A stretch of 34,605 nucleotides of DNA from assembly GCA_043809315.1 (NCBI GenBank), contig JAZDDX010000043.1:1-34605 (forward strand), read 5' to 3'. The DNA comes from Pseudomonadota bacterium. Its GTDB lineage: Bacteria > Bdellovibrionota_G > JALEGL01 > DATDPG01. Position 1 is the first letter of the stretch. The number at the start of each line of letters is the position of its first letter. Shown here piece by piece: positions 2,964 through 17,837 of this stretch. Both the position numbers and the translations under genes were made by a program. Below the pieces are notes generated by a model. It was not told the DNA's origin and did not search any database. It saw only the letters and a list, made by a program, of their open reading frames with translations.

Positions 2964-3497
2964 ATGGATCAACCCTCAGACAAGATGGAACAACGAGTAA
3001 AAGGACTCTTCCGGCAGGCGGAGCAGGTTCCTCTGGAACCGTCCCCCTTCTTGAAAACGCGAGTTCTGGCTCATGTGCGTGAAGCCCGAGCCAAGACGGT
3101 CGGTTTCCGCTGGAAGATGTGGGCATTGGCCAGTTCGACGGCCAGCCTTCTTTTGCTCTCGGTTCTTTTCTGGCCCGCGCGGTCGTCTTTGACGGCCCTG
3201 GTGGATCAACGGGTCCTCGTGCGGGTGGAGGTGGAGGCTCTCGAAGGCAGCAACGTCGCGTACGCGACCGTGGAACTGCCGGACGGGGTTTCCTTCGTTT
3301 CAACGAAATATCCGGAAATCCAAAAGGCACATGAGGTGCGCTTGGCCTGGATGCCGGAGTTCGAGAACCGTGGATTGCCGGTCGTCGTTCGAGCGACCTC
3401 GGTGGGAAAAAAAACCATCCGCATATTTCTTTTCGACCGTAACGATACGGTTCTGAAGGCCAAGGAAGTAACCATCACGTTCCGGGGAGCGGCGTAG
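2964..3497 (+). CDS. putative membrane anti-sigma factor (single TM)
   Basis: 177-aa ORF 27 nt downstream of the ECF sigma gene with an AAGGAAG Shine-Dalgarno. One TM helix (WALASSTASLLLLSVLFW) and a periplasmic C-terminal domain. No zinc-finger motif seen; the role is inferred from position. Confidence 0.55.
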   Translation: MDQPSDKMEQRVKGLFRQAEQVPLEPSPFLKTRVLAHVREARAKTVGFRWKMWALASSTASLLLLSVLFWPARSSLTALVDQRVLVRVEVEALEGSNVAYATVELPDGVSFVSTKYPEIQKAHEVRLAWMPEFENRGLPVVVRATSVGKKTIRIFLFDRNDTVLKAKEVTITFRGAA

Positions 3498-3527: not shown

Positions 3528-4064
3528 ATGAAAAAACGAAATCTATGGAGCGGGATCGCGGTAAGCGCTCTCTTGTTGGCTCCGGTCGCCTCTTGGGCGG
3601 CGTCCGACGATCAAGTCGTCCAGGCTACCACCGAGGACGTCAAGGCGTTTGAAAACGCCGTCATGGAGAAGAACCAGGCTCGGGATCAAGTGCGCGAACG
3701 GGATCGGCTCCAAGAGCATCAGGCGACTGGATCGGCGGTGCAGGAGAAAGCCCGCATCCGGACCGAAAAGGCCGCGCGTACGAAGACAGGCCTGGGTGAG
3801 GTGGTGTCGGAGGAAGCGAAGAAGCTGAAGAATGCGGATCCGGCGACCCGGAACAAGTTCGGCGAGCAGGTTCGCGAGCGGGCCCGTCAACGGGAAGAGA
3901 CGCAGGAGCAAGCCCAGACCCGGCAACGGCAGGGGTGGGATGCCGTGCGTGACACGACCGTTCAGAGCGGCCAGCGGAACGGTGTGGACGCAGGCGCGGG
4001 CAGCGGAAGCGCGACGTCCGGCTCAGGAAGCGGGCAACAGAACGGCACTCAGCAGCACAAATAG
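3528..4064 (+). CDS. secreted low-complexity charged (Q/E/R-rich) protein
   Basis: 178 aa. AAGGGAAG Shine-Dalgarno. Signal peptide MKKRNLWSGIAVSALLLAPVASWA|AS. Highly charged coiled-coil-like body and a GSGS-rich C terminus. Last gene of the ECF cluster, followed by a terminator. Confidence 0.6.
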   Translation: MKKRNLWSGIAVSALLLAPVASWAASDDQVVQATTEDVKAFENAVMEKNQARDQVRERDRLQEHQATGSAVQEKARIRTEKAARTKTGLGEVVSEEAKKLKNADPATRNKFGEQVRERARQREETQEQAQTRQRQGWDAVRDTTVQSGQRNGVDAGAGSGSATSGSGSGQQNGTQQHK

Positions 4065-4093: not shown

Positions 4094-4137
4094 CCCCCGG
4101 GTTTCGAGGAATCCCCTCGGAACCCGGGGTGTGTTTT
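4094..4137 (+). terminator. Rho-independent terminator (15-bp GC stem, AATC loop, TGTGTTTT tail)
   Basis: CCCCCGGGTTTCGAGG-AATC-CCCTCGGAACCCGGGG-TGTGTTTT, read directly. Near-perfect inverted repeat with one G.U wobble, 30 nt after the stop at 4064. Confidence 0.65.
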
Positions 4138-4164
4138 GAAAGGACCGTTTTCGAAGGAGTCTCT

Positions 4165-4208
4165 GGTCACATAGGGTACTACTGGCTGCACGCGGGGGAC
4201 GGCAAAAC
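4165..4208 (+). repeat. intergenic repeat copy 1 (GGTCACATAGGGTACTACTGGCTGCACGCGGGGGACGGCAAAAC)
   Basis: First of 8 same-orientation copies. Lies between the terminator and the 3' end of the minus-strand lipoprotein gene. Most similar to copy 2 (shared CTGGCTGC and GACGGC variants; upstream AAGGACC). Confidence 0.9.
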
Positions 4209-4290
4209 TTTAGTCGTCAGTCGGCCGGCTGCGCGGTGCCAAAAAGCCGAAACTCCGGTTCGGCCCGCCAGCGAACGAAAGGAACGACCG

Positions 4291-4683
4291 TCAATCGGGC
4301 CACGAGACCGTCAGATCAGCCGAGCTACCTGATTGCTTCATCCCGCAGGCCTGTATGGTCTCCTCGAGAGTCTTTGCGGTGGACACACAGATCACGAGCG
4401 TTCGCTTCTGTTTCGCGCAGACTTCAAAGTTCCGTGGATCCGCGCCTTCCAGGCCCGTCGACTCATCGATCCTCTTGAGCTGTGCGTCCATGTCCTTTTG
4501 AGCGTCAGCGGCGGCAGGCGACTCCAGATTGATGTTCTTCTTCATTTGCTTGACGACGTACTTGCCCAGAAGCTTGCTCAGATTGCCCACCGCCTGTTGG
4601 CATTCTTCCGGGCTTGCTTTCTTCGCGCAGGCTAGGATCGTGCAGAGCCCGAAAACCGCTAGGATTACGAATCTCGTACGCAC
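4291..4683 (-). CDS. Cys-rich lipoprotein, unknown function
   Basis: Track ORF is 4291..4740. I prefer the GTG at 4683 (AGGT 7 nt upstream), which gives an 18-aa signal ending in the lipobox ILAC|AKK. The track start would give a 37-aa signal. The mature part has 4 further Cys. Confidence 0.55.
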   Translation of the reverse strand: MRTRFVILAVFGLCTILACAKKASPEECQQAVGNLSKLLGKYVVKQMKKNINLESPAAADAQKDMDAQLKRIDESTGLEGADPRNFEVCAKQKRTLVICVSTAKTLEETIQACGMKQSGSSADLTVSWPD

Positions 4684-4936
4684 GGCAGCTACCTTATCAC
4701 GGGTCTGTTTCGCCGCGAACGGCGACGTATACCTAGGCACCTTGGAATTTCAGCGTTCCCGATACTAAGATGGGCCGGGAATGCCGCGAGTTTCCGCATC
4801 GACCTTTCCCGAATGACGTTCCGCGAGTTCCATCGGCACAGCGAGGTTCTGGCCTCTGCCCTCTGGGCGTTCGACATCGTGAAGATCGGGCATCGGCGGG
4901 AAGTTTGCGAAGAGTAGGGCCTTTTTCAAGGACCAT

Positions 4937-4980
4937 GGTCACGTAGGGCACTGCTGGCTGCGCAGAAGGGACGGCGTTGC
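4937..4980 (+). repeat. intergenic repeat copy 2 (diverged: GGTCACGTAGGGCACTGCTGGCTGCGCAGAAGGGACGGCGTTGC)
   Basis: Aligns to copy 1 over its whole length. The 5' end forms a perfect 10-nt palindrome GACCATGGTC (4932-4941). Lies in the divergent region between the lipoprotein gene and the FGE-domain gene. Confidence 0.8.
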
Positions 4981-5054
4981 CAATGTTCTGGAGCCATCCC
5001 ACTCTTATTCCGATACGATGAGAATGAAGTCGGTCCTTCACGATTGGAGGGAAG

Positions 5055-6095
5055 GTGAGAGTCTCTCGGACTTTAGCAACGATTCAGACTCTTCTGGTGA
5101 TCGGTTTTCTTTGCGGCTGCTCGAGCAGCAGCGCTCCTATCGTTGCTGATCCCACCCCAACACCACCTCCGACCCCGACGGCGGGCGCAACGGCTACCCC
5201 GACGCCGACCGCAACTCCGACGTCGACCGTAACCCCAACCCCAACCCCGACGCCCACCATTCCGTCCTGCGTCGGAGGGTTGATGTGCAATTCCGCCAGT
5301 TGTTGTTCGTCTCACGAGATCCCGGCTGGGAGTTACACGATGGGGGCCCCCAACGCCGACGGAAGCTATGCTGCCGACACCAAGCCGCAGCATACGGCCA
5401 CCATCGCCAGGTTCGTTCTTGATGACTTTGAAGTGACCGTGGGACGGTTCCGTACGTTTGTCGCAGTCTATACCGGTGCGGCCCCCGCGACGGATTCCGG
5501 AGCCAATCCGGAAATCGTCGGGTCCGGATGGAGTGCCGGGTGGAACGCTTCGCTCCCAGCTGGCGCGGCGAATCTGATAACGGCATTGAAGTGCAGCGGC
5601 TACACCTGGACCGATACTGTCGGGGCCAACGAGAACCGCCCGATCAATTGCGTGACTTGGTACGAAGCCTTCGCGTTCTGCATTTGGGACCAGGGACGTC
5701 TGCCCACGGAAGCGGAGTGGGAGTACGGCGCGAAGGGTGGGGCGGAAGATCGGCTCTATCCGTGGGGATCCCCGATCGATGCATCTTATGCCTGCTACTC
5801 CGGGTGCTCTCTAGGAGATGTCGGATCGTATCCGGCCGGCATCGGGAAATGGAACCAGCTCGACCTGGCCGGGAACCTCGCGGAGTGGACCTTGGATTAC
5901 TATGCCGCCGACTGGTACTCGGGTGCCGGAGATCCGTGCTCGAATTGCGCCAACCTCTCCGGGGTGAACCGTTTGGTACGAGGCGGTTCGTCGTTGACCA
6001 ATACCGATGGTCTGCGTAATCCGACCAGGGCCAACTTGTCGCCGAGTTCCCGGACCTCAACGACTGGATTCCGGTGCGCCCGAGCCGCGCCGTAA
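5055..6095 (+). CDS. FGE-sulfatase (SUMF1/EgtB/PvdO-type) domain lipoprotein with Pro/Thr-rich linker
   Basis: GTG start with GGAGGG Shine-Dalgarno. Lipobox VIGFLCGC. Linker PTPTPPPTPTAGATATPTPTATPTSTVTPTPTPTPT. FGE-domain motifs NCVTWYEAFAFCIW, RLPTEAEWEYGAKGG, RGGS...R. Confidence 0.8.
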   Translation: MRVSRTLATIQTLLVIGFLCGCSSSSAPIVADPTPTPPPTPTAGATATPTPTATPTSTVTPTPTPTPTIPSCVGGLMCNSASCCSSHEIPAGSYTMGAPNADGSYAADTKPQHTATIARFVLDDFEVTVGRFRTFVAVYTGAAPATDSGANPEIVGSGWSAGWNASLPAGAANLITALKCSGYTWTDTVGANENRPINCVTWYEAFAFCIWDQGRLPTEAEWEYGAKGGAEDRLYPWGSPIDASYACYSGCSLGDVGSYPAGIGKWNQLDLAGNLAEWTLDYYAADWYSGAGDPCSNCANLSGVNRLVRGGSSLTNTDGLRNPTRANLSPSSRTSTTGFRCARAAP

Positions 6096-6114
6096 GTCAG
6101 AACGCCATGTTCGT

Positions 6115-6158
6115 GGCCATATAGGGTACTCCTGGCTACACGCGGGGGACGCCAAATC
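6115..6158 (+). repeat. intergenic repeat copy 3 (..GGCCATATAGGGTACTCCTGGCTACACGCGGGGGACGCCAAATC)
   Basis: 20 nt after the FGE stop. Its last base is the first base of the reverse-complement TAG stop (cta 6158-6160) of the minus-strand gene 6158..6709. Confidence 0.9.
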
Positions 6159-6709
6159 TAGTCCTTGAGACTTCGCAAGAACTCCAAATCCTGCATATCA
6201 GCGGGATTCTTTCTGTCTCTTACCGCGATTTCCTTCATGGTGATCAGGTCTTTCTTGTCAGCGATGAGGAACGGGTGAGACTTGATGGTCTTTCTTCGGG
6301 CTCGCTGAGCGACGCCTCTTGCCGGGATCGGAAAGTCGAATAGAAGATCGACCCTCAGATCGAGATCGCGGTTGAAAAAGTGCGCGCTCTTCGGTGGATC
6401 CATGTTGAGCTTTGCATAGGCCACATTCGCATTATCCACCGTACGCACGATGTTGCCGCGCTCGTCCAGCTTCGAGACGAGCTCAAGTCCGTGCTTGTAG
6501 AAGACCTTCATCAACTCCTTATTCTTCCGAGCGTCCGCCTCGATCAGGAAATCAAAGTCCTTTGTTACGCGGTTCGATTCAAGCAGTGCCAGAGCCATGC
6601 CACCGACAAGGGTAGGGGAGTAGCCCAGCTTCATCACATCCTCGATGAGCTCCCCGACCGATTCGGCGAGGCTTTTCCGTCGCAATATCTTCTTGGGCCT
6701 AGTTTTCAT
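6158..6709 (-). CDS. nucleotidyltransferase-fold protein (MNT/AbiEii-like), possible toxin-antitoxin or defence-type component
   Basis: 183 aa. Minimal nucleotidyltransferase motif VGGMALALLESNRVTKDFDFLIE (hG[GS]x9-13 [DE]h[DE]h). Visibly lower GC than its neighbours. 9-nt gap from the upstream small ORF, suggesting an operon. Confidence 0.65.
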   Translation of the reverse strand: MKTRPKKILRRKSLAESVGELIEDVMKLGYSPTLVGGMALALLESNRVTKDFDFLIEADARKNKELMKVFYKHGLELVSKLDERGNIVRTVDNANVAYAKLNMDPPKSAHFFNRDLDLRVDLLFDFPIPARGVAQRARRKTIKSHPFLIADKKDLITMKEIAVRDRKNPADMQDLEFLRSLKD

Positions 6710-6718
6710 CGGAGCCCG

Positions 6719-6919
6719 TCACGACTCGGCACCACGGAGTTCTCGAATGGCGTCCAAGTGTTCGAAGTTGCTCTGGATCCGTTTCGCGAGTCGTAGAGAT
6801 TCCATCCGAGCTTTGACTCCAAGTCTGGCGATTTCCTGACGACGATCACTCGGCAGCCGTTTCGCCCTTGTGAGCCCGCCCTTTCTACCCATAATTTTGG
6901 CCATTTCCGACACGGTCAT
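6719..6919 (-). CDS. small basic protein (66 aa), putative DNA-binding or antitoxin-like partner of the nucleotidyltransferase
   Basis: ORF MTVSEMAKIMGRKGGLTRAKRLPSDRRQEIARLGVKARMESLRLAKRIQSNFEHLDAIRELRGAES. Start uncertain (ATGs at 6919, 6904 and 6892, none with a good Shine-Dalgarno). Function is inferred from the pairing only. Confidence 0.4.
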   Translation of the reverse strand: MTVSEMAKIMGRKGGLTRAKRLPSDRRQEIARLGVKARMESLRLAKRIQSNFEHLDAIRELRGAES

Positions 6920-6952
6920 AATCTCAATGTTAACTTATCGCTAAGTAAAATA

Positions 6953-6971
6953 CAAGGTCGGCGGCGTTGCC
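6953..6971 (+). repeat. degenerate fragment of the repeat 3' end (CAAGGTCGGCGGCGTTGCC, compare copy 2 GAAGGGACGGCGTTGCC)
   Basis: Lies 18 nt upstream of copy 4. It resembles the variant 3' end of copy 2, suggesting a decayed tandem copy. Confidence 0.4.
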
Positions 6972-6988
6972 TGGGGATCGAGACTTAG

Positions 6989-7031
6989 GGTCACATAGGG
7001 TACTACTGGCTACAAGCGGGGGACGCCAAAC
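6989..7031 (+). repeat. intergenic repeat copy 4 (GGTCACATAGGGTACTACTGGCTACAAGCGGGGGACGCCAAAC)
   Basis: Ends 1 nt before the reverse-complement TGA stop (tca 7032-7034) of the methyltransferase gene. Followed by GTTAGCC at 7040-7046. Confidence 0.9.
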
Positions 7032-7895
7032 TCACGTTAGCCGAAGAAGAGTCCTTCCCAATCCCCACTCTGCTCTCGCATTTGGAAGACGTGCCCATTC
7101 CAGGAGCTCGAACAAAACCTGTTTGAGGTCGCATGGCAGCTTAAAGAGGCGGGCCCCGACCACGTGCCCTAAAAATGCATGTCGAACGTACATCTCAACC
7201 TCGGCGGGGGTGGTGAAAAGGGTTCTCAGGTGTTCGATTTTCACCACCGAAAAGCCGTGATTCGACGCCGAGTCAACGAGCCTCTCTTCGACCTTCCTCT
7301 GATTGCCCTGCCCCTGTTTGGAACCAAGAGATTCCCGAAGGCGATTCATTACCGGTGCGGGAGGATCCTCGCGCCAGTATTCGTCCAATGCGTCCAGGAC
7401 GTGCAGAACTCCTCCTCGCTCTAGCACCCGCCTTGCGGTCTCGAGAAAACGATCGTGATCATCGAGATGCTGCAGAAGCGCACGAGCGATCGCGTAACTG
7501 AACGGGCCCCCCGAAAAATCGTAGACATCTTGCTGATGGAGGGCGCAATTAGAAAATGACCCCAACCTCTCGGCAGCGGCAACGAGTAACTCGGGGCTCC
7601 GGTCCACGCCGGCGTAAGTCTTTTCCGGGAAAACTGAACAAAGACGCTCGATCAAATGTCCGGGGCCGCACCCAAAATCGACCACCGTTTTCGCGCTCTT
7701 CCAGTCCGCGTCCCGTGACAGGAACTTCTGCAGCTCTTTCCATGTTCCGGCCATCTGAATTTCAAGAACGACTTCGTAGATCTCCTCCGTTCTTGCGTGT
7801 TTCAGAACGTCGAGATGGCGGGCAGGACTTTCGGAGAAATCGGCCAGGCGAACGGTTGCGTTGAAGCCGTACTGGCGGGCAATCGGGTTATCCAT
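7032..7895 (-). CDS. class I SAM-dependent methyltransferase
   Basis: Motif I VVDFGCGPGHL and post-I acidic D (AGVDRS). Track ORF extends to 8144, but that 83-aa R/S-rich N-extension overlaps the esterase gene and contains a repeat fragment. ATG at 7895 (MDNPIARQYGF...) gives a typical 288-aa enzyme. Confidence 0.7.
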   Translation of the reverse strand: MDNPIARQYGFNATVRLADFSESPARHLDVLKHARTEEIYEVVLEIQMAGTWKELQKFLSRDADWKSAKTVVDFGCGPGHLIERLCSVFPEKTYAGVDRSPELLVAAAERLGSFSNCALHQQDVYDFSGGPFSYAIARALLQHLDDHDRFLETARRVLERGGVLHVLDALDEYWREDPPAPVMNRLRESLGSKQGQGNQRKVEERLVDSASNHGFSVVKIEHLRTLFTTPAEVEMYVRHAFLGHVVGARLFKLPCDLKQVLFELLEWARLPNARAEWGLGRTLLRLT

Positions 7896-8006
7896 CCACC
7901 AAGACGCTATGCCAGATCTCGAAAGACGGCGAGAAATAGAACGTGGACCACTAGCGTTTTGGATGGGACCAGATCTACCACGTACACGGATAGACGACGA
8001 ATCCCG

Positions 8007-8021
8007 TCGGGGACGCCAAAC
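8007..8021 (+). repeat. truncated repeat copy (CGGGGACGCCAAAC, the 3' ~15 nt only)
   Basis: In the 212-bp spacer between the esterase and methyltransferase genes. Matches the 3' end of the core. The 5' part is decayed (CTACCACGTACACGG versus GCTACACGCGGGGG). Confidence 0.5.
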
Positions 8022-8107
8022 TTTGATTTCCGTGGGGGAATCGCGATGAGAGACGCACGCGTCAACGAGGGTTGCCGCCCCAAAAATAGGGTTTCGATCA
8101 CGACGAG

Positions 8108-8869
8108 TTAGGCTGCTTCGACCGCCGCCAGCACTTCTTTCCACGGCTCGCTGTGCGGATCGATCAATTCAAAGTGGCCACACTTCAAGACTTCCACCAG
8201 TTGAACGTCCTCGCCCCTTATCTTCTTAGATTCGACGTATCTTCGGCTAAAGTCGTTGGGAACTACATCGTCCTCGGTGCCGTGGACGAGCCATTGCTTT
8301 GCCTGTGCGATTGGAAGTGTCATCGGGTCGGCTTTCACATAGCGTTCCGGCACTTGATCGGGCTTCCCGCCCATGAATTCGGCTGTGGCATCCTTGGAGA
8401 GATGTAAGTCGAAGGCAGCCCGCAGATCCACCACTCCGGCGAGCGAGATTACGCGCTTCACGGAAGGCTCATGTGCCGCGAGGCACAGTGCCAGATGTCC
8501 TCCTGCGGAGAACCCCATGACGACCACTTTGCGAAGATCGAAGTGATATTGGTTTGCCACTTGGCCGATGTGTCGATAAGCGGCGGCAATGTCTTCAAAT
8601 GTTCCTGGCCATCCACCACCTGGATCTCCCACGCGCCGATATTCGACGTTCCAGGTGGCAAAGCCTTTTTCTGTGATTGAAGCGCAAAGGTGCTCGGCTT
8701 CAGCGAGGTCGTATTTGTTGCGCCAGAAGCCGCCATGGATGTTCATCATCACGGGAAAAGGTCCCTTCCCTCCGGGAAGACGAAGATCGGCGAAGTGCTG
8801 CGGCGCGGTCCCATAGAACACACGCGCGGTTGCCGGTGGCGGGGCAAGCCTGACGGTGTCCTGTGTCAC
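8108..8869 (-). CDS. alpha/beta-hydrolase esterase/lipase family protein
   Basis: Oxyanion-hole motif NIHGGFW and nucleophile elbow GFSAGGHLA, with C-terminal HGTEDDVVP and GHFEL (catalytic Asp/His). 253 aa; GTG start at 8869 is uncertain. Confidence 0.8.
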   Translation of the reverse strand: MTQDTVRLAPPPATARVFYGTAPQHFADLRLPGGKGPFPVMMNIHGGFWRNKYDLAEAEHLCASITEKGFATWNVEYRRVGDPGGGWPGTFEDIAAAYRHIGQVANQYHFDLRKVVVMGFSAGGHLALCLAAHEPSVKRVISLAGVVDLRAAFDLHLSKDATAEFMGGKPDQVPERYVKADPMTLPIAQAKQWLVHGTEDDVVPNDFSRRYVESKKIRGEDVQLVEVLKCGHFELIDPHSEPWKEVLAAVEAA

Positions 8870-8981
8870 AACGGCGCGATTAGATCACGGATTGTGAGTG
8901 TCGGCCACGTCTGCGCCGCCAACGACCGGTCGCATGAATCTTCACTTGACACGAAAGACGCTCGTGGAATGAAGTTGGACG

Positions 8982-9653
8982 ATGACGAACTCACGGCACT
9001 TTTCCGAAGAAGAAGTCCACGCGCTTGCCCGGGATGCGTACGAAAGGGGCGTCTGCGAGTTCCCGGTGATGCCGGGTCGGTCGGCCCTCTTGGTCATCGA
9101 CATGCAGGAGGAATTCGTGAAGCCCAATTGGACGCCCTACTGGGTGCCCGCCGCCACCCGGATTGTCCCGCGGATCGCGCGACTCCTGGAATCCTGCCGC
9201 AACCTGGGCGTTCCCGTGATCTTCACGGCGTTTGGTTCGACCCACCGGTTTCTGGATCGGCCCCTCACCGGGTCCCTGATGCCGAACCGGTACGCGCGCA
9301 TTCCGCACGACTCCTCCTGGTTCCGCGAGGGAAAGATCGTGGCGTCGCTTGAGCCGCGATCGGAAGAAATCACGATTTTGAAGCCGTCGTACGGTGCCTT
9401 CTATGACACCCCGCTGGAGACCGTCCTGAAGAATCTTGGTCGGGACACGGTGATCATCAGCGGCACGCTGACGAACTTCTGTTGTGGTATGACCGCTCGG
9501 CAGGCCTATGAGCGAGGCTTCCACGTGGTTTTCGGAGCCGACGTGACGGCCTCCGACGATGCCGAGATGCACGAGAACGAACTGAAGAACCTGCGCAAGG
9601 GTTTCGCGAGGGTGATGACAGCGGAGGAAATCCTTGTGGCGCTGGGGGCCTGA
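8982..9653 (+). CDS. isochorismatase-family (cysteine) hydrolase
   Basis: ATG start. SALLVIDMQEEFV motif with catalytic Asp context, and C-terminal TNFCCGMTARQAYERGFHVV with catalytic Cys. 223 aa. Confidence 0.85.
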   Translation: MTNSRHFSEEEVHALARDAYERGVCEFPVMPGRSALLVIDMQEEFVKPNWTPYWVPAATRIVPRIARLLESCRNLGVPVIFTAFGSTHRFLDRPLTGSLMPNRYARIPHDSSWFREGKIVASLEPRSEEITILKPSYGAFYDTPLETVLKNLGRDTVIISGTLTNFCCGMTARQAYERGFHVVFGADVTASDDAEMHENELKNLRKGFARVMTAEEILVALGA

Positions 9654-9723
9654 CCGCTGCCCACAGTCGACGCACTTTCGCCTCCGTCCCATAGACCGGA
9701 TTTCGCCCTCAAACGGAACATAT

Positions 9724-9766
9724 GGTCACGCAGGGTACTACTGGCTACACGCAGGGGACGCCAAAC
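9724..9766 (+). repeat. intergenic repeat copy 5 (GGTCACGCAGGGTACTACTGGCTACACGCAGGGGACGCCAAAC)
   Basis: 70 nt after the isochorismatase stop and about 40 nt before the true N-terminal coding region of manA. 5' near-palindrome GAACATATGGTC. Confidence 0.9.
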
Positions 9767-9950
9767 TGGATGGGTGGGACGTTGTTTTGGCCCGTGATCA
9801 GCGTAAGAGTACTGGATCGACCCCATTCAAACACCTCTGTATCCACTGCGATTTGAACCGATTTATGAATATCGGCTCTGGGGTGGACGGCGTTTAGCCG
9901 AAATACTCAACGCCTCGCTACCGAGTGACGGCCCGATCGGTGAAGCGTGG

Positions 9951-10817
9951 GTGCTCAGCGACCGCGATGACCATTCAAGTCGCGTAGCCAATGGACCGCT
10001 CAAAGGAAGGATGATCGGCCAACTGCTTCAACAGTTTCCGGAGCAAATGCTGGGAAAGTCAGCCCAACGATTTCGTCGATTTCCCCTGTTGCTGAAGTTC
10101 CTGGATGCACGTGAAATGCTTTCAGTCCAGGTGCATCCAACGGATGCCGATACGAACCTGCTGCCCGCGAACGAGACTGGAAAGACGGAAGCATGGGTTG
10201 TGATGGAAGCGGGCGCGGAAAGTCGCATCTATGCGGGCTTGAATCCAGGGACTACTACGGACGGACTTCGGCAGGCACTGGAAAACGGGGCGATTGCGGA
10301 TCATCTGGCCAGCTTTACGCCAAGACCGGGCGACGGCATTTTCATTAGAGCCGGGACCGTTCACTCGTTGGGCGACGTTGTGGTGTTTGAGGTACAGGAA
10401 AACAGCGATGTCACGTTTCGCCTATACGACTGGGACCGTGTCGACGGCAAAACGGGCCGGCCTCGCGCTCTGCAAGTCGATCAGGCGATGGCCTGCATTG
10501 ATTTTGCCCAAGGTGCGGTTGTCCCTGTGGTGCCGGTGGTGGAAGAAACAAAGCCGGCGCTTCGAGAGCGGCTCGTCTTATGTGAGAATTTTGGCTTGTG
10601 GCGACTCCGTGGAGAATCACCATTCAAGGTCGGTGCAGAGGGAGTTCTGCGTATGTTGGTGTGCATCGTCGGCGACGGTGAGGTGGAATACAAGGGCTCC
10701 CAATATGCCGTCGGAACCGGCGACGTGCTGCTCCTGCCGGCGGTGGTCGGAGCGTGTGGTTTTCAGCCGCGCGGGGCCGTGACCTTGTTGGAAGTTTCGC
10801 TACCGTTGGAACGATAG
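9951..10817 (+). CDS. manA: mannose-6-phosphate isomerase, class I (N-terminus uncertain; homology extends upstream to about 9807-9816)
   Basis: The same frame upstream of the GTG at 9951 encodes PIQTPLYPLRFEPIYEYRLWGGRRLAEILNASLPSDGPIGEAWVLSD, the conserved type-I PMI N-terminal segment. There is a TAA at 9804-9806 and no ATG/GTG/TTG before 9951. Downstream motifs LSVQVHP..D and ENFGLWRL support the PMI call. Confidence 0.75.
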   Translation: MLSDRDDHSSRVANGPLKGRMIGQLLQQFPEQMLGKSAQRFRRFPLLLKFLDAREMLSVQVHPTDADTNLLPANETGKTEAWVVMEAGAESRIYAGLNPGTTTDGLRQALENGAIADHLASFTPRPGDGIFIRAGTVHSLGDVVVFEVQENSDVTFRLYDWDRVDGKTGRPRALQVDQAMACIDFAQGAVVPVVPVVEETKPALRERLVLCENFGLWRLRGESPFKVGAEGVLRMLVCIVGDGEVEYKGSQYAVGTGDVLLLPAVVGACGFQPRGAVTLLEVSLPLER

Positions 10818-10859
10818 GGGGCTTTGCTCCTAGCATCTCGGCCCCCAAGGGCGTAGAAG

Positions 10860-13139
10860 ATGCGTGTGACGGAAGCTCCGAGCACCTCAGGGATCAAGCG
10901 GATCGCAGTGATCGGCGACTATCTTCCGCGTCAATGCGGGATCGCGACGTTCACCACGGATCTCTGCGAAGCCCTTTCCACGCAGTTCCCCCAGACTCAG
11001 GTGTTCGCCGCCCCCGTGAACGATACGGACGACGGGTACGACTATCCTTCCCGGGTGCGTTTTGAGATCGAGCAGGACGATCTTTCTTCGTATCGGCGAG
11101 CCGCGGATTTTCTGAACATCAACAACGTCGACATCGTTTCTGTCCAACATGAATACGGGATCTACGGGGGGAAGGCGGGAAGCCACATTCTGGCGCTCCT
11201 AAGCGAGCTCCGGATGCCGGTGGTCACGACGCTTCACACGATTCTAGAGAATCCGGATCCGAACCAGAAGAAAGTGATGGAAGAACTGACGAAGCTCTCG
11301 GATCGGCTGGTGGTGATGAGCCAGCGTGCCGTGAAGTTTCTCGAAGAGATCTACCTTGTCCCATCGAACCGGATTCAGATGATCCACCACGGGACGCCCG
11401 ATGTCTCGTTCGTGGATCCCAATTTTCACAAGGACCGCTTCGGCGTGGAGGGGAAGTCCGTTCTTCTCACATTCGGGTTACTCTCGCCCAGCAAGGGAAT
11501 TGAATACGTGATCGAGGCGCTTCCGGCGATTCTGGCCCGGTTTCCCAACCTGGTCTTCATCGTGGTAGGGGCGACGCATCCGAACGTTCTCAAGCAGGAC
11601 GGGGAACTTTATCGTCTCAAACTGGAGCGGCTGGCTGCGGACCTGGGAGTGAGTCAGAACGTCGTTTTCCACAATCGCTTCGTGGATCTCGAGGAACTGG
11701 TGGAGTTCATCGGGGCTGCGGATCTCTACGTGACGCCGTATTTGAACCGCGAGCAGATCTGTTCGGGAACGCTCGCCTATACGGTATCGGCCGGGAAGCC
11801 GGTGATTTCCACGCCGTATTGGTATGCCGAGGAACTTCTTGCCGAGGGCCGGGGCGTCTTGGTTCCCTTTCGGGACTCGAAAGCCATTGCAGGTCGCGCG
11901 ATTGAACTTCTTGAGACGGAAGCCGACCGACATGCCATTCGCAAGAGAGCGTATCTCTTCGGTCGTGAGATGATCTGGCCGAAGGTGGCTTCCGCATACA
12001 TGCAGACCTTTGAAGAAGTACGCGACCACCGGTTGCGGCGGCCGAAGCCCTTTACGGTCCGAACGCTGGATCAGCGGCCCGCCGAATTGCCTCCGTTGTC
12101 TCTGAAGCATCTATATCGACTCACCGATGAAACCGGCCTTTTTCAGCATGCGATTCACACCATCCCCAACTATCGGGAGGGATATACGACCGACGACAAC
12201 ACCCGGGGCTTGATTCTTACTGTGCTTCTCGAGGATCTCGGGGAAGAAGAAGAAGTCCTGGAAACGGAAGACCTTCCGGCTCGGTATATGGCCTTCGTGA
12301 TGTACGCGTACAATTCCGAAATCGGCCGCTTTCGGAACTTTCTCGGATTCGACCGGCACTGGTCGGAAGACAAGGGTTCGGACGACAGCCATGGGCGCGC
12401 GCTCTGGGCCTTAGGGAGCATGTCGGGCCGGTCGCGGGATGTCGAACGGGCCGCTTTGGCAGGACAACTGTTCAACACGGCTCTGAAGGCGATGAAAGAT
12501 TGCACGAGCCCGCGCTCGTGGGCCTTCACGCTTCTCGGGCTGCACGATTATCTCAAACGGTACGCGGGGGACCGCGAAGCCCGTCAGATGCAGGAGATGC
12601 TCGCCGGACGTCTGATGGAGATGTTTACACGCAACGCGTCCGAGGAGTGGCGGTGGTTTGAGGACGTTCTCACGTACTCGAATGCCACGCTCGCTCAGGC
12701 GCTCTTTGTCTCGGGTTCCGCTTTGGGAAAACCCGAATACATCGAAACGGGGCTGCGGGCGCTTACGTGGCTGGGCTCCATCCAGGGGGCCAACGACAGC
12801 CACTTCATTCCGATCGGGTCCACGGGATTCTACCGCCGGGGAGGCGAGCGGGCGCGCTTCGATCAACAGCCGATCGAAGCGCAGACCATGATCTCCGCGT
12901 ACCTGGATGCCTATCGCATCACGGGGGACAAGAAATGGCAGAAAGACGCGCAGCGAACGTTTGAATGGTTTCTGGGCCGCAACGACTTGCGACTTCCGCT
13001 TTATGATCCTGCCACCGGCGGCTGTCGGGACGGGCTTCATTCCGATCGTGTGAACCAAAACCAGGGGGCCGAGTCGACGTTGGCGTTCCTGATGGCGCTC
13101 TTAGAACTCAAGTTGGCCGACCAAGTGCTGCAAATCTAG
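10860..13139 (+). CDS. bifunctional-looking glycosyltransferase family 4 (N-terminal) + (alpha/alpha)6 six-hairpin glycosidase-like domain (C-terminal)
   Basis: N-terminus KRIAVIGDYLPRQCGIATFTTDL plus GT4 core (FGLLSPSKGIEY, E...GLVLLEA-like YVTPYL..SGTLAYTVSAGKPVISTPY). C-terminal ~350 aa (WAFTLLGLHDYL, WRWFEDVLTYSNATLAQAL, ESTLAFLMALLEL) reads as a glycoside-hydrolase six-hairpin barrel (GH63/GDE_C-like). The domain families are my inference. Confidence 0.75.
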   Translation: MRVTEAPSTSGIKRIAVIGDYLPRQCGIATFTTDLCEALSTQFPQTQVFAAPVNDTDDGYDYPSRVRFEIEQDDLSSYRRAADFLNINNVDIVSVQHEYGIYGGKAGSHILALLSELRMPVVTTLHTILENPDPNQKKVMEELTKLSDRLVVMSQRAVKFLEEIYLVPSNRIQMIHHGTPDVSFVDPNFHKDRFGVEGKSVLLTFGLLSPSKGIEYVIEALPAILARFPNLVFIVVGATHPNVLKQDGELYRLKLERLAADLGVSQNVVFHNRFVDLEELVEFIGAADLYVTPYLNREQICSGTLAYTVSAGKPVISTPYWYAEELLAEGRGVLVPFRDSKAIAGRAIELLETEADRHAIRKRAYLFGREMIWPKVASAYMQTFEEVRDHRLRRPKPFTVRTLDQRPAELPPLSLKHLYRLTDETGLFQHAIHTIPNYREGYTTDDNTRGLILTVLLEDLGEEEEVLETEDLPARYMAFVMYAYNSEIGRFRNFLGFDRHWSEDKGSDDSHGRALWALGSMSGRSRDVERAALAGQLFNTALKAMKDCTSPRSWAFTLLGLHDYLKRYAGDREARQMQEMLAGRLMEMFTRNASEEWRWFEDVLTYSNATLAQALFVSGSALGKPEYIETGLRALTWLGSIQGANDSHFIPIGSTGFYRRGGERARFDQQPIEAQTMISAYLDAYRITGDKKWQKDAQRTFEWFLGRNDLRLPLYDPATGGCRDGLHSDRVNQNQGAESTLAFLMALLELKLADQVLQI

Positions 13140-13160
13140 AACCGGAACGGGAGAAACTGC

Positions 13161-14132
13161 ATGAGCCAGGGGCAAAAGGAATACGACGCTCTTTTCGTTC
13201 GGAGTGAAAAGAATCCCATTCTCTCGGCCGCCGATTGGCCGTACGCCGTCAACAGCGTCTTCAACGCCGGGGCGACGCGCTTACTGGACGGAACCACGCT
13301 CCTTTTGTGCCGCGTGGAGGATCGCACTGGGCACTCGCATCTCTGTGCCGCGCGTTCGAAGAACGGTGTCGACGGTTGGCAAGTTGATTCTCAACCGACG
13401 ATGAAACCCGATATGGAAGGTCATCCCGAGGAGATCTGGGGAATTGAAGACCCCCGAATCACGTACCTTCCGGAATTAAAGAAATATGCGGTCGTGTACA
13501 CGTCGTTTTCGCGAGGCGGTCCGGGAGTCTCGATCGCCTTGACCGAGGACTTTCATCTGTTCGAACGTCTGGGGGTCGTGATGCCTCCCGAAGACAAGGA
13601 CGCGGCACTTCTTCCCCATCGGATGGATGGGCGCTGGGTTTTGATTCATCGCCCCTCCACGCCTCTGGGGTCGCATATCTGGAGCTCGTACTCGCCCGAT
13701 CTCCGGCATTGGGGGGACCACAAGCTTGTCCTTCAAGCCCGCCGGGGAGCCTGGTGGGATGCCAACAAGATCGGACTCAACACGCCGTTGATCGAGACTC
13801 CTCGGGGTTGGCTGATGATTTATCACGGCGTTCGAAACACCGCCGCTGGGGGCGTCTATCGCCTGGGGCTTGCACTCCTCGATCCGAAATGTATCGAACA
13901 TTGTCTTCTGCGAGGGGAAACGTGGATCTTCGGCCCTGAAGCGAATTATGAACGGGAAGGGGACGTGGGGAACGTTGTCTTCCCATGTGGGCTCACCATC
14001 GCCCCGGACGGGGACACGATTCATCTCTATTATGGAGCGGCGGATACGTGCATCGCCTTGGCTCACGCGAGCGTTCGAAAGTTGTTGGGTTGGCTGGAAC
14101 GAAACGGCCGTCCGGAGCGTTTTCCGTTGTAA
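13161..14132 (+). CDS. GH130-family beta-mannoside phosphorylase/glycosidase
   Basis: Motifs NPIL..ADWPYAVNSVFNAGA, EDPRITYL, YAVVYTSFS, GWLMIYHGV, and C-terminal HLYYGAADTCIALA, typical of GH130 (5-bladed beta-propeller). 22 nt after the GT gene, so operonic. Confidence 0.85.
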   Translation: MSQGQKEYDALFVRSEKNPILSAADWPYAVNSVFNAGATRLLDGTTLLLCRVEDRTGHSHLCAARSKNGVDGWQVDSQPTMKPDMEGHPEEIWGIEDPRITYLPELKKYAVVYTSFSRGGPGVSIALTEDFHLFERLGVVMPPEDKDAALLPHRMDGRWVLIHRPSTPLGSHIWSSYSPDLRHWGDHKLVLQARRGAWWDANKIGLNTPLIETPRGWLMIYHGVRNTAAGGVYRLGLALLDPKCIEHCLLRGETWIFGPEANYEREGDVGNVVFPCGLTIAPDGDTIHLYYGAADTCIALAHASVRKLLGWLERNGRPERFPL

Positions 14133-14176
14133 GCCCGGCATAGGGTACTCCCGGCTACACGCGGGGGGCGCCAAAT
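14133..14176 (+). repeat. intergenic repeat copy 6 (GCCCGGCATAGGGTACTCCCGGCTACACGCGGGGGGCGCCAAAT)
   Basis: Starts directly after the GH130 TAA stop. Lacks the GGTCAC 5' end; core conserved. Confidence 0.9.
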
Positions 14177-14212
14177 GCAGTTGGCAGTCTCGGCAACCCT
14201 TCCCGGGGGCAC

Positions 14213-15211
14213 TTGACACGCAGCAGCGCTTCCCAATACGCTTTGTTTCGCATGGGTTGGGGACGAAAGAGCCTTTTCGCGATCGCCGTTACGATCACTC
14301 TTCCCACGCAAGCTCCATCCATCCCGTCCCCGCCGAGCGACAGCCTCACGGCGATGTTGGCGCGCACATCGCCGAATTTCTACGGGCCGAACTGTTTCAA
14401 CACCGTGCTGCTGGCTACAGGAGTCCTTCCCTTCGATGACGTGCGCTACGTCGATTCGGACGAATTCGAGTTTCTGTTGCGCCTTGATTTCGACCTGGTT
14501 AAAGGCGAGCCGCGGCGGGGGGACGTCGTCCTCTACAGCGCGTCGGACAAGCGGAATCATGCGGCGGTCTACCTCGGGGAGGGGCGCGTCTTCCACAAGA
14601 AGGATTGGTACTCCGCGTATGTCTATCGCGAGGTTGGAATCGACGAGGTCTTCTCCTACGAACCGGGGGACGACCATCCTCGAAGGCCTGAAGATCCGAT
14701 CCCGACTTGGAGTCGTGAGGAGATCGTAGACCGTGAGTTCTACCGACCGAAAGGTTCCCTTTTTTCTTACGTGGTCCCTTTCGAGCTGCGCCCCGCGGAG
14801 CAAGTTCTTTCGTACGTGCACGCGGCCGTGCTCGAGTACGGTCCGCGCTGGAAAGTGGGGGATATTCTGGGGATCGTGACGGAAGATCTGATGAGCTCGA
14901 TCTGGTCGCGAATGTCCGAGGTGCCAGCGCTCGCCGTCCTTGCCAAGAGCCTGCACAATCAGGTGTATAAGAGCATCGTCGCCGAGCATTTCGCCTCCAT
15001 CTTTGCCGATCGGGAGCGGATCGAACGCAAGATCTATTTCAAGGACAACGAGTTCCTTCGCACGCTGATCCAGCTCGTGAGCCAGATGGAGGGGGTTGAC
15101 GCGGACCTCGATGGCGTCATCGCATGCCTGGAGGCGGACCGAACTAAGCGACGCCTGAGCCTTCCGGAGGCGGTGCGTGAGGCAGCCGGCGTTCCGGGGA
15201 CATACCACTGA
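14213..15211 (+). CDS. secreted hypothetical protein; N-terminal papain-like (NlpC/P60-type Cys..His..His) hydrolase candidate + helical C-terminal domain
   Basis: 332-aa ORF (TTG at 14213; possible ATG at about 14352). Signal-like N-terminus. Candidate catalytic arrangement NCFNTV ... GDVVLYS..HAAVYLGEGRVFH. Function is inference only. Confidence 0.5.
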   Translation: MTRSSASQYALFRMGWGRKSLFAIAVTITLPTQAPSIPSPPSDSLTAMLARTSPNFYGPNCFNTVLLATGVLPFDDVRYVDSDEFEFLLRLDFDLVKGEPRRGDVVLYSASDKRNHAAVYLGEGRVFHKKDWYSAYVYREVGIDEVFSYEPGDDHPRRPEDPIPTWSREEIVDREFYRPKGSLFSYVVPFELRPAEQVLSYVHAAVLEYGPRWKVGDILGIVTEDLMSSIWSRMSEVPALAVLAKSLHNQVYKSIVAEHFASIFADRERIERKIYFKDNEFLRTLIQLVSQMEGVDADLDGVIACLEADRTKRRLSLPEAVREAAGVPGTYH

Positions 15212-15227
15212 AGCCAAATTAACCGAT

Positions 15228-15280
15228 GGTCACGTAGAGTGCCGTTGGCCGCGCGCGGGGGGCGTCATCGGAACGTCGGG
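15228..15280 (+). repeat. intergenic repeat copy 7, long subfamily (GGTCACGTAGAGTGCCGTTGGCCGCGCGCGGGGGGCGTCATCGGAACGTCGGG)
   Basis: 17 nt after the stop at 15211. 51/53 identical to copy 8. Contains the perfect palindrome CCGCGCGCGG. Confidence 0.9.
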
Positions 15281-15325
15281 TCCTTTTGCCGTCGCGCTTC
15301 GTTCCCATTTGCTCGCGCGTAATTG

Positions 15326-15353
15326 TTTCACGGACCCTGACTCCTGATATGGT
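15326..15353 (+). promoter_or_regulatory. candidate sigma70-like promoter for the SPFH operon (TTTCAC-16-TATGGT)
   Basis: Seen in the AT-richer spacer 30 nt upstream of the AAGGAG Shine-Dalgarno of the gene at 15384. Purely a sequence-pattern call. Confidence 0.25.
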
Positions 15354-15383
15354 AGGTTTTCATCGCAAGATAAGGAGCCCCCA

Positions 15384-16208
15384 ATGAACCAGATCGAAAG
15401 CGCTGTTCACAACTTAGTTCCGAAATTTATTCCCGTAGCCGTCGTGATTTTTTTGTTAATCGTCATGGCCGCGGCGGGAACCTTCATCATCCCGCCAGGT
15501 CATCGAGGTGTTCTTGTCACGATGGGAAAGGTTTCAGCAGCGTTTGCCCCTGAGGGTTTTGGGTTTAAGACTCCTTTTATTACGACGATTGTTCCGATAT
15601 CGATTCGACAACAGACGAAACCCGCGCAAGCGGATTGCTACTCCTCCGATCTTCAACAAATCAGCGTGGAGCTGAGAGTTCTTTATCGGATTCCCGAGAG
15701 CATGATTGTAAGAATCTTTCAGGATTACTCGGGTGATCCGTTCGACAGCCTGATTGCACCAAGAGTTAGTGAGGCTCTTAAAGAAGTCGCCGCACTACAG
15801 AGCGCCGAGCAGATTGTGAAAAAACGCGAGGAGATCAAAGCGAAAGCGCTCGCAGCCGCTCGTGTAAAAGTGGGGAACCTCCTCGTCATCGAGGATATCG
15901 TTATACAAAACGTTTCGTTATCAAAAGAGCTCGAAGCGGCCATTGAGGCTAAGATGGTTCAGGAGCAAGAAGCCGCAAAGGCCAAGTTTGTGCAACAAAA
16001 GGCGGAAATCGAGGCCAATACAGCCGTCATCAAAGCGAAGGGGGAAGCCGAGGCGATTCGAGTTCGCGGGAAGGCTTTGCAGGACAACCCGGGTCTCGTC
16101 CAACTTCAAATTGTTGAAAAATGGAACGGGATCTCGCCCCTTGTGGTGGGAGGCGGTAGCGGAGGCGCGAATATTCTTCTTCCGATTGGGGATCCCCGGG
16201 GGCGCTAA
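15384..16208 (+). CDS. SPFH/band-7 (prohibitin/HflKC-like) membrane protein
   Basis: ATG with AAGGAG Shine-Dalgarno. N-terminal TM helix (FIPVAVVIFLLIVMAAAG), SPFH core (IIPPGHRGVLVTMGKV...), and C-terminal coiled-coil region (EAAIEAKMVQEQEAAKAKFVQQKAEIEANTAVIKAKGEAEA). Confidence 0.85.
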   Translation: MNQIESAVHNLVPKFIPVAVVIFLLIVMAAAGTFIIPPGHRGVLVTMGKVSAAFAPEGFGFKTPFITTIVPISIRQQTKPAQADCYSSDLQQISVELRVLYRIPESMIVRIFQDYSGDPFDSLIAPRVSEALKEVAALQSAEQIVKKREEIKAKALAAARVKVGNLLVIEDIVIQNVSLSKELEAAIEAKMVQEQEAAKAKFVQQKAEIEANTAVIKAKGEAEAIRVRGKALQDNPGLVQLQIVEKWNGISPLVVGGGSGGANILLPIGDPRGR

Positions 16209-16405
16209 TGAGACAGCCTCTTCGCGGTATTCTTCAAACTGTATTTCTCATTTTCTTTGCGTTGCTCCTCATCCGTTTTTTCCCTTTTGTGGTCCGAATT
16301 GGAGAAGCTGCCGCGTTGGGGTTGCGCGAATTTTGGTGGGGCATTCTGATCTTGGCGATGGCTTTGTGGTTTCTGTGGGTCTTTCGTAAACGAAAGATCA
16401 CGTAA
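16208..16405 (+). CDS. small two-TM membrane protein (65 aa), translationally coupled partner of the SPFH gene
   Basis: TAATG stop/start overlap. Two hydrophobic helices (ILQTVFLIFFALLLIRFFPFVV; WWGILILAMALWFLWVF) and a basic tail RKRKIT. Confidence 0.55.
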   Translation: MRQPLRGILQTVFLIFFALLLIRFFPFVVRIGEAAALGLREFWWGILILAMALWFLWVFRKRKIT

Positions 16406-16414
16406 TCGCTACGT

Positions 16415-16467
16415 GGTCCTGTAGAGTGCCGTTGGCCGCGCGCGGGGGGCGTCATCGGAACGTCGGG
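16415..16467 (+). repeat. intergenic repeat copy 8, long subfamily (GGTCCTGTAGAGTGCCGTTGGCCGCGCGCGGGGGGCGTCATCGGAACGTCGGG)
   Basis: 10 nt after the stop at 16405. Last copy in the window; nothing similar in 16.5-34.6 kb. Confidence 0.9.
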
Positions 16468-16662: not shown

Positions 16663-17505
16663 CTACGGAAGACAGGTAACCCCGTTGCCGATGTTCACCT
16701 CGTGCCCGTTGTCATTCGAAGATTGATTCTGGACGACGGTTCCTGCCGGCGCGGAGATGCAATGGCCGTTCCCCAATAAGCTGTAATTGAGCCCCCAACT
16801 GGGGACCAAACGAATATCAAGCTTATTGCTCCCTCCGGTGCCCGATTGAAGGTCGGCGATCTCGGCGGAACTCGTATTCTGGAACAGCTCGGCGTTCGAT
16901 CCGCCCGACAACTCATTGCAGATCCCGACGGCCATCTGCGCGTTTGTGAACCGCAGGGTGTTGGAGTTCCCCTTGTGGTAGATGACGATCCGCTCGAGAT
17001 CCGGCGCCAGACTCATATCGAACGTGGCATCGACACCGTTGGAGCTTACGCTCACGATGTAGTTCTGGATGCCGCTGAGAGAGGGTTGAAACGAGCCGGA
17101 AGGTGCGTTGGTGACCGCGGTGGTCCCGATCCCGTAGTTGATACAGGACCCGTTCACGCGCACGATCGGAGGTGTAGGAGTCGCCGTCGGCAAGGGGGTC
17201 GGCGTCGGGTCGCCCGGTTTTGCCGTGGCGGTCGGTTCCACCGTGGGAGCTGGTGTAGCGGTTGGGAGGGCGATCGGGGTGAATTGGGCGATCGGAGTTC
17301 CTTCTGGGTTGGTAATGGATGGAGGTCCGTTTCCGGTATCGGGGGCGACCGCGCAGGGGTGGTCCGGGTCGCCGCAACCGGGGAGTGTCGGGAGGACGTC
17401 GCCGAGTCCGACAAACGTGAACGGAGTCGACGACGAACAGGCGATCACGATTGAGAGAACGGTGACAAAGGTGAAGCCAAAAAGAGTCAAATATTTGCGA
17501 GTCAT
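16663..17505 (-). CDS. lipoprotein with Pro/Thr-rich linker, unknown function
   Basis: Start ATG at 17505 with GGGAGGAAACT Shine-Dalgarno (track start 17565 is unlikely). Lipobox SIVIAC|SSS. Linker PTATPAPTVEPTATAKPGDPTPTPLPTATPTPP followed by a Gly/Ser/Asn-rich beta-type domain. Confidence 0.65.
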   Translation of the reverse strand: MTRKYLTLFGFTFVTVLSIVIACSSSTPFTFVGLGDVLPTLPGCGDPDHPCAVAPDTGNGPPSITNPEGTPIAQFTPIALPTATPAPTVEPTATAKPGDPTPTPLPTATPTPPIVRVNGSCINYGIGTTAVTNAPSGSFQPSLSGIQNYIVSVSSNGVDATFDMSLAPDLERIVIYHKGNSNTLRFTNAQMAVGICNELSGGSNAELFQNTSSAEIADLQSGTGGSNKLDIRLVPSWGLNYSLLGNGHCISAPAGTVVQNQSSNDNGHEVNIGNGVTCLP

Positions 17506-17837
17506 AGTTTCCTCCCGAGGGCCCGAAAAGCTTGGCCCGTCCTTAGACTGCACGAAACACGCCAATCATTATAGGGCGCAACAAACTAGTTATGCTAGGT
17601 ATTTTGATGCAACCGAAACGGCGGGTCTGCGTGAACTATGCATTCATTTCAATCCAGTGCATTTTTTTCAACCTACGAGTACCACTTTCCAATCCTTTTC
17701 AGCTCCGCCTCTTTGAAATCGACGGGCGTCATCACGCGCAGGTTCAAATGAAAAATAAAGGGGTGCTCCCATGGAACCTTTTTTATGGATTCTCGTTTGA
17801 AGGTGGGTAAAGGGAGGGGATCAAAAAGGGGGAAGAT

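Follow-up and report, generated by a model that had tools for sequence, protein, structure and literature searches.

What are the short repeats that recur between genes along some 12 kb of contig JAZDDX010000043.1, and how did they come to be there? The whole 34.6-kb contig was analysed and is referred to below as the window; its eight repeat copies are numbered c1 to c8 from left to right. The original prediction was that neighbouring copies are the most alike, as would be expected either if the array had grown by local duplication or gene conversion, or if modules had been added together with their own flanking site. Our analysis favours the second of these: with a probability of about 0.7, the repeats serve as attachment (att) sites for site-specific recombination targeting the 3′ end of a tRNA-Glu gene, and the array is an additive island of serially inserted, cassette-like modules.

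A profile made from the repeat copies and run over both strands of the window finds exactly eight, all on the plus strand, with E-values between 1e-15 and 1e-10 (the matches start at 4159, 4931, 6109, 6983, 9718, 14128, 15222 and 16409), and a separate repeat search agrees. There is no ninth copy on either strand of the 34.6 kb, the next best profile match having an E-value of 0.8. The motif is about 45 nucleotides long (TGGTCACATAGGGTACTNCTGGCTRCACGCGGGGGACGCCAAA). All eight copies are intergenic and confined to positions 4164–16467, and their direction is constant whatever the strand of the neighbouring genes.

The link to tRNA-Glu comes from a second genome. We scanned a degenerate pattern covering all eight copies over 185,579 species genomes, one per species, and found one real locus, contig JAZDIZ010000038.1 of a metagenome-assembled genome (MAG), together with a Streptomyces match (L001) that is best regarded as chance, since its E-value is only 5e-4. 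Both arrays come from MAGs labelled “Pseudomonadota bacterium”. The second contig was read as three loci (L002, L003 and L007), 21 kb being examined, and its full copies are termed m0 to m4. It carries genes for tRNA-Lys and tRNA-Glu(UUC) (ARAGORN; Rfam tRNA model, 36.4 bits), the latter at L003 9833–9910 and followed directly by four co-oriented full copies of the repeat. The core of the repeat, GGGGACGCCA, is identical to the last 10 nucleotides of this tRNA-Glu in 8 of the 13 full copies from the two genomes, and matches at 9 of 10 positions in three more. The tRNA gene ends in ...CTCGTCGGGGACGCCA and continues into AACTTTGGTTTCCAG; the sequence 3′ of the core resembles this downstream flank in c1, c6, m0, m1, m2 and two partial copies.

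A full site is thus some 45–65 bp long and consists of three parts: an arm of 30–33 nucleotides that is conserved and not derived from the tRNA (TGGTCACATAGGGTACTNCTGGCTRCACGC), the core, and, in many copies, a downstream part of about 16–22 nucleotides (AAACTTYRGTTKYCAG) that matches the sequence after the tRNA gene. The clearest example is c1 (4164–4226), the copy nearest to the consensus (98%), with its arm at 4164–4193, the core GGGGGACGGCA at 4194–4204 and a downstream part, AAACTTTAGTCGTCAGTCGGCC, at 4205–4226 that resembles the flank 3′ of the L003 tRNA-Glu. The most degenerate copy of the standard type is c2 (4936–4976; core AAGGGACGGCG), with 70% identity to the consensus. The other standard copies are c3 (6114–6176; core GGGGGACGCCA at 6144–6154), c4 (6988–7028; core at 7018–7028), c5 (9723–9763; core AGGGGACGCCA at 9753–9763) and c6 (14133–14195; core GGGGGGCGCCA at 14163–14173). 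A variant form is seen in c7 (15227–15280; core GGGGGGCGTCA at 15257–15267) and in c8 (16414–16467), the last site of the array.

ARAGORN and Rfam find no tRNA gene in the window. Alignment to the L003 tRNA-Glu nevertheless reveals a decayed 3′ part of this gene with its flank at 7985–8031 on the plus strand (CACGGATAGACGACGAATCCCGTCGGGGACGCCAAACTTTGATTTCC), of which the last 35 or so nucleotides are nearly identical to the intact gene and the 5′ two-thirds are eroded by insertions and deletions; weaker similarity to the tRNA-Glu region spans 7922–8095. Neither program detects a tRNA at 7985–8031, and the fragment is not a functional tRNA. The stretch of 2.7 kb from c4 to c5 is thereby split into two modules. 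The fragment sits within what the open reading frame (ORF) finder takes as the N-terminus of a methyltransferase ORF (7032–8144), the start of which is probably the methionine at 7895, not position 8144.

Apart from the sites, a single block of sequence is common to the two loci, the modules being otherwise unrelated. The block lies at 14196–15257 (plus strand) in the window and aligns to L003 7801–6706 with 73% nucleotide identity over 1097 nucleotides; it holds an NlpC/P60-like gene (14213–15211; 65% amino acid identity) and the arm of c7. As it opens immediately 3′ of the c6 downstream part and stops exactly at the start of the c7 core, the arm belongs to the module upstream of it, just as an attC site belongs to the integron cassette gene that precedes it. 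Downstream of the homologous gene in L003 is a c7-like copy with neither the G-run nor the core. The standard sites are 87% identical between the genomes, compared to 73% (nucleotides) and 65% (amino acids) for the only common gene, which suggests either selection on the sites or their recent spread. These observations support the part of the original prediction in which modules are acquired like cassettes, each with its own site: the cores are tRNA-Glu ends, a second array carries different genes, and the one block found in both genomes begins directly behind one site and ends at the next core. The sharply bounded identity of c7 and c8, between unrelated flanks, speaks for the same process.

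How such modules might have arrived can be outlined as follows. Small modules, with one gene or a few apiece and a site of their own, would be inserted one after another, and the junctions would persist as co-oriented site copies between unrelated genes. A tyrosine-type integrase encoded elsewhere could act in trans on modules that have no integrase of their own. Going by the layout of sites and modules, we consider this integron-like version, with a trans-acting integrase, plausible at a little under even odds. A further form of the idea, which we put forward tentatively and with the odds leaning against it, is cassette capture proper, in which compact, mostly single-gene cassettes without an integrase would carry a non-palindromic, double-strand site of about 65 bp. 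A recombinase from elsewhere in the genome would then insert and excise cassettes at the tRNA-Glu gene or at any resident site. A scheme with one kind of site gives N+1 sites for N modules, the arrangement found in the window, and fits the window better than recombination between an attB and an attP site.

The explanation that competes best with mobilisation in trans is classical accretion followed by decay, in which the modules are remnants of larger, integrase-bearing elements at tRNA-Glu (islands, prophages, integrative and conjugative elements (ICEs) or integrative and mobilizable elements (IMEs)), much like cis-mobilizable elements: deletion of the integrase and mobility genes would have left att sites and cargo behind. 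In its favour, tRNA genes often host insertions by this known mechanism (PMC5704250; 10.1101/2020.12.28.424599), it accounts just as well for the tRNA-end core and the tRNA-Glu anchor, and several sites are degenerate (c2, c6, c7/c8 and the c7-like copy of L003). Against this, modules 1 to 7 of the window are bounded by sites and contain no recombinase or transfer genes, no ICE or IME remnants are visible in the modules, and no recognisable integrase fragment is found in the eleven or so modules of the two genomes. The modules are compact, with sites 0–18 nucleotides from stop codons and little non-coding debris: c6 follows the stop codon of a GH130 gene with no gap, c7 and c3 follow theirs after 15 and 18 nucleotides, and the cores of c3 and c4 stop 3 nucleotides short of the ends of minus-strand genes. 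Most sites also retain a full, well-conserved arm. Since the modules are small and free of mobility-gene debris, and the sites complete, conserved and tightly placed, mobilisation in trans is favoured over decay, which we regard as unlikely.

Several observations weigh against att sites and serial insertion. No plausible ORF of the window (34.6 kb) encodes a detectable integrase or member of another recombinase family, and none turned up in the 21 kb of the second contig, about 55 kb in all, so that the enzyme is hypothetical. Dyad symmetry of the kind expected at a recombinase core reaches 6 of 9 positions at best, a value matched by 396 of 500 shuffled sequences; a further, non-significant lead is GGACGCCAAAC-TTTAGTT-GTCAGTCGGCC, with 7 of 11 positions around a 7-nucleotide spacer. 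The tRNA-Glu trace, the sole tRNA trace in the window array, lies inside it, and c1, at the left end, keeps a complete consensus arm even though it abuts a conserved chromosomal operon; simple recombination between attB and attP predicts neither. On the second contig, two copies lie beyond the tRNA-Lys/tRNA-Glu pair in the opposite direction (L003 6694–6742 and 6569–6621, both minus strand). The first of these is the c7-like copy without a core and the second, some 70 nucleotides further, is the full copy m0; both come after the NlpC/P60-like gene. Homologues of this gene occur in four related genomes, two of which (L004 and L005) show no site near it, so the “cassette” common to both arrays may be an inherited chromosomal gene beside an old site. 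The gene itself is probably inherited rather than mobile, and a possible decayed site upstream of it in L003 is not significant (p = 0.09). Lastly, only two arrays are known: two degenerate patterns gave no match in JGI metagenomes, a degenerate pattern gave none in viral contigs, and a BLAST search with a 63-nucleotide consensus gave none among plasmids or phages.

The other process named in the original prediction, local duplication or gene conversion, would have enlarged the array by copying a resident repeat and kept neighbouring copies alike. We computed pairwise identities over the 44-nucleotide core of the repeat. The grouping of c7 with c8 holds: they are 95% identical over this core and 52 of 54 positions agree overall (15227–15280 versus 16414–16467), with unrelated sequence on either side, and among the 13 copies of the two genomes they are the sole clear mutual nearest neighbours. 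No such group is formed by c1 and c2, which have CTGGCTGC and GACGGC in common, including two rare bases, yet are just 73% identical; c2 is an outlier to every copy, while c1 is 86–89% identical to c3, c4 and c5, these four copies being mutually 84–89% identical. The upstream AAGGACC said to unite c1 and c2 is out of register, lying about 24 nucleotides before TGGTCAC in c1 but 1 nucleotide before ATGGTCAC in c2, and is best taken as chance. The other strings on which the grouping was based are present, with one reservation: c3 to c5 have the common form CTGGCTAC...GACGCCAAA, whereas c6, though closest to c3, reads CCGGCTAC...GGCGCCAAA and so fits that form only approximately.

Over all eight copies, a Mantel test with exact permutation gives p-values of 0.03–0.09 for a relationship between similarity and position, but this vanishes when c7 and c8 are left out (rho = −0.06, p = 0.44), so the rule that similarity follows position holds for the c7/c8 pair only. 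Repeating the comparison in the second genome, as had been proposed, likewise shows no correlation (p = 0.5). With the five copies of that genome included, c1, c4 and c5 (and c3, in a tie) each have their closest match in the other genome, with identities of 95% for c4 and m3, 93% for c1 and m3, and 91% for c5 and m4, and in a neighbour-joining tree the standard copies of one genome are intermingled with those of the other. Mean identity among standard copies is 86.7% in the window, 85.2% in the other genome and 87.4% between them; as identity within genomes equals that between genomes, the arrays have not been homogenised by conversion. Local duplication or conversion is thus quite improbable as a general process and largely refuted for c1 to c6. 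The adjacent, nearly identical c7 and c8 are a possible exception, though their identity ends sharply on both sides, unlike that of a segmental duplication. We infer that their likeness goes back to insertion of the intervening Band 7 module at a variant-type site already present beside the NlpC-like gene, which would fit the sharp borders, the unrelated flanks and the low G+C content of that module.

A repeat so well conserved across two genomes might also have a role other than recombination, as a small RNA, a tRNA-end-like RNA processing signal, a protein-binding site or a repeat resembling repetitive extragenic palindromes (REPs) or miniature inverted-repeat transposable elements (MITEs). 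An identical terminator hairpin follows two copies in the other genome, and Alifold predicts a weak consensus stem of 9 pairs at about −5 kcal/mol from either 8 or 13 copies, with one compensatory and one disrupting event. This hairpin scores −5.2 kcal/mol, compared to −0.9 ± 1.2 for column shuffles, and the compensatory change is in c7/c8. However, Rfam has no match anywhere in the window at the gathering threshold, and none at the repeats at E-values up to 10 over 4100–7100, which with the weak fold led us to reject a described structured RNA family. The sites coincide with no predicted promoter or terminator and their direction is independent of the genes. REPs, bacterial interspersed mosaic elements and MITEs were rejected too, as there is no palindrome and there are no terminal inverted repeats, and the eight copies point one way in one 12-kb cluster instead of being dispersed. 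Taken together, the results on folding, dyad symmetry, Rfam, promoters and terminators, and orientation argue against attC sites, REPs or MITEs, a riboswitch, a small RNA or a promoter motif. A role of this kind would also leave the tRNA-Glu at the head of the second array unexplained, and is hardly likely.

Sites of the Xer/dif type are 28 bp long, with inverted XerC and XerD arms around a 6-nucleotide spacer, and pdif sites alternate in orientation. We rejected this identity for the repeats, as no dyad symmetry with a spacer of 4–9 nucleotides exceeds chance and all sites are direct. An integron-type array, in which the repeats are attC sites of a cluster without an integrase (CALIN), has a negligible probability despite the same-direction sites, the mostly single-gene and toxin–antitoxin modules and the absence of an integrase nearby, because the repeats form no imperfect palindrome or hairpin (single-strand DNA folds of the eight copies have z-scores of −0.4 to +1.2, none much better than shuffled sequences), have no symmetric R''/L''–L'/R' arms and no conserved GTTRRRY ends, fold as a consensus at only −5 kcal/mol with unconvincing covariation, and have a core that is a tRNA 3′ end, not an attC feature.

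The genes between the sites are ordinary accessory genes. Of the 7–8 consecutive modules of the array, five have a single gene and a length of 0.8–1.2 kb. Module 1 (4227–4935) has one ORF of 149 amino acids (4291–4740, minus strand) with no family match. Module 2 (4977–6113, plus strand) encodes an FGE-sulfatase-domain protein (5055–6095, plus strand; PF03781, E = 5e-38). Module 3 (6158–6987, minus strand) holds an AbiEii-like nucleotidyltransferase toxin (6158–6709, minus strand), with a weak match to PF08843 (E = 4.5e-4), and an ORF of 66 amino acids (6719–6919, minus strand); the two are possibly a toxin–antitoxin pair, the second being a putative antitoxin. Module 4 is the one divided by the tRNA-Glu fragment. 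Its first part, 4a (7032–7895, minus strand), is the methyltransferase, which Pfam matches indicate to be S-adenosylmethionine-dependent. In the second, 4b (8108–9653), Pfam identifies an alpha/beta hydrolase (esterase; 8108–8869, minus strand) and an isochorismatase-family protein (8982–9653, plus strand). The latter is 34% identical to another isochorismatase-family protein encoded in the core region (25918–26586), so the two genes are distant paralogues, not the result of a recent duplication. Module 5 (9951–14132, plus strand) is predicted by Pfam to encode a cupin/PMI-like protein (9951–10817), a GT4 glycosyltransferase (10860–13139) and the GH130 phosphorylase (13161–14132). Module 7 (15384–16208, plus strand) is an SPFH/Band 7 protein, also from Pfam. 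Its G+C content of 0.516 is the lowest in the window, compared to 0.588 for the right flank, and it is one of two low-G+C modules, the other being at 0.534. Exact look-ups of four window proteins returned no record.

On the left of the array, an operon encodes an extracytoplasmic function (ECF) sigma factor (within 2146–2937), an anti-sigma-like protein (2964–3497) and a secreted protein of 178 amino acids (3528–4064), and a terminator scan places a strong hairpin with a 15-bp stem at 4095–4129 (plus strand); the array begins 35 nucleotides later. A relative (L006) has the same operon and terminator but no site, and other genes follow. A JGI contig also has the operon in identical gene order, again with other genes after it. 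On the right, c8 is followed by a small ORF and then by a lipoprotein gene (16663–17565, minus strand) that forms the border, with core genes such as those for BipA and a DEAD-box helicase further right. Also outside the array, a GGC-rich tandem repeat at 20248–20323 (periods 9, 12 and 30) is the glycine-rich tail of an RNA-binding protein with an RRM domain (19991–20329).

In the second array the modules carry a histidine phosphatase (His_Phos), a CDH-like protein, a toxin–antitoxin pair (RHH and ParE) and a 5-kb group of NorB, hemerythrin, cupin, TetR and DUF6448 genes. Toxin–antitoxin-like modules thus occur in both arrays, at 6158–6919 (minus strand) in the window and, as RHH_5 and ParE, at L003 11956–12437 (plus strand). 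Behind both m3 and m4 comes a tract of the same type (L003 12457–12690 and 17622–17855; at least 234 nucleotides, 98% identical) that includes a terminator-like hairpin, GCCGCCCACTCCGGTGGGCGG plus a T-run. Because the contig ends inside the second tract, its full length may be greater, or the assembly may have broken there on account of this repeat. Elsewhere on the contig, an isolated AAACTTTAGTTTGGTTTCC at L007 ~13215–13240 resembles the downstream part of the sites and the tRNA-Glu flank, with no arm or core adjacent, and may be the remnant of an old site. A different repeat, with AATCGGGGGACAC and two tandem units of AAAATCGGGGGACACCTTACCAATTA, lies at L003 ~7900–7960 (minus strand), and REP-like palindromes containing AATCGGGGGACAC (GGGGACAC...GTGTCCCC) lie between small ORFs with no assigned function at L004 3676–7221.

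If single-gene modules are indeed moved in trans, the system would represent integron-like capture of genes by a second and independent route, in which ordinary double-strand att sites made from a tRNA end do the job of the folded attC. It would also help to explain how “additive” islets that lack mobility genes arise in poorly sampled environmental bacteria. Should the array instead be a stack of ordinary integrative elements in decay, it amounts to a routine tRNA-linked island and its value lies mainly in annotation: the motif of 45–65 nucleotides flags module boundaries, and 4164–16467 should be treated as accessory DNA.

Four known systems invite comparison. The first are additive islands with recurring tRNA-end repeats, such as fGI-2 (PMC10872708), a concept that originated with Alteromonas (PMC3698932). 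There too, direct repeats of the tRNA 3′ end are spread through variable, mostly accessory genes, insertion is sequential at one site, and modules may be very small. Here, however, only about 10 nucleotides of the site derive from the tRNA and are joined to a conserved arm of 30–33 nucleotides that does not; the target is tRNA-Glu, of which the window keeps just an internal fragment; and the evidence comes from two unrelated arrays, not from strain-to-strain variation. Cis-mobilizable elements (CIMEs), which keep attL and attR after loss of the integrase (PMC5704250), similarly form tandem arrays when newcomers enter existing att sites, and the modules of the window are likewise bounded by sites and without integration and transfer genes. 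As a rule, however, a CIME is a decayed ICE or IME several kb in size with one or two copies present, whereas here 7–8 modules stand in a row with no mobility-gene debris.

A similar picture emerges for the tycheposons of Prochlorococcus, stacked elements separated by partial tRNAs (10.1101/2020.12.28.424599). They too integrate at tRNA genes and stack side by side, with niche-related genes as cargo. They differ in being defined by a tyrosine (or large serine) recombinase that they encode themselves, often with a replication module besides, neither of which was found in the modules here, and tRNA-Glu is not among the seven tycheposon target genes reported (10.1101/2020.12.28.424599). Integron arrays and CALINs resemble the window in their co-oriented sites, in compact, mostly single-gene cassettes with the site at the 3′ side, in toxin–antitoxin cassettes, which are stabilising in chromosomal integrons, and in sites that are better conserved than the cargo; the differences are that no hairpin-forming attC and no IntI are found here and that the core is a tRNA 3′ end. 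The array is a system of a known kind, a tRNA-linked additive island or tandem att array, with integron-like features.

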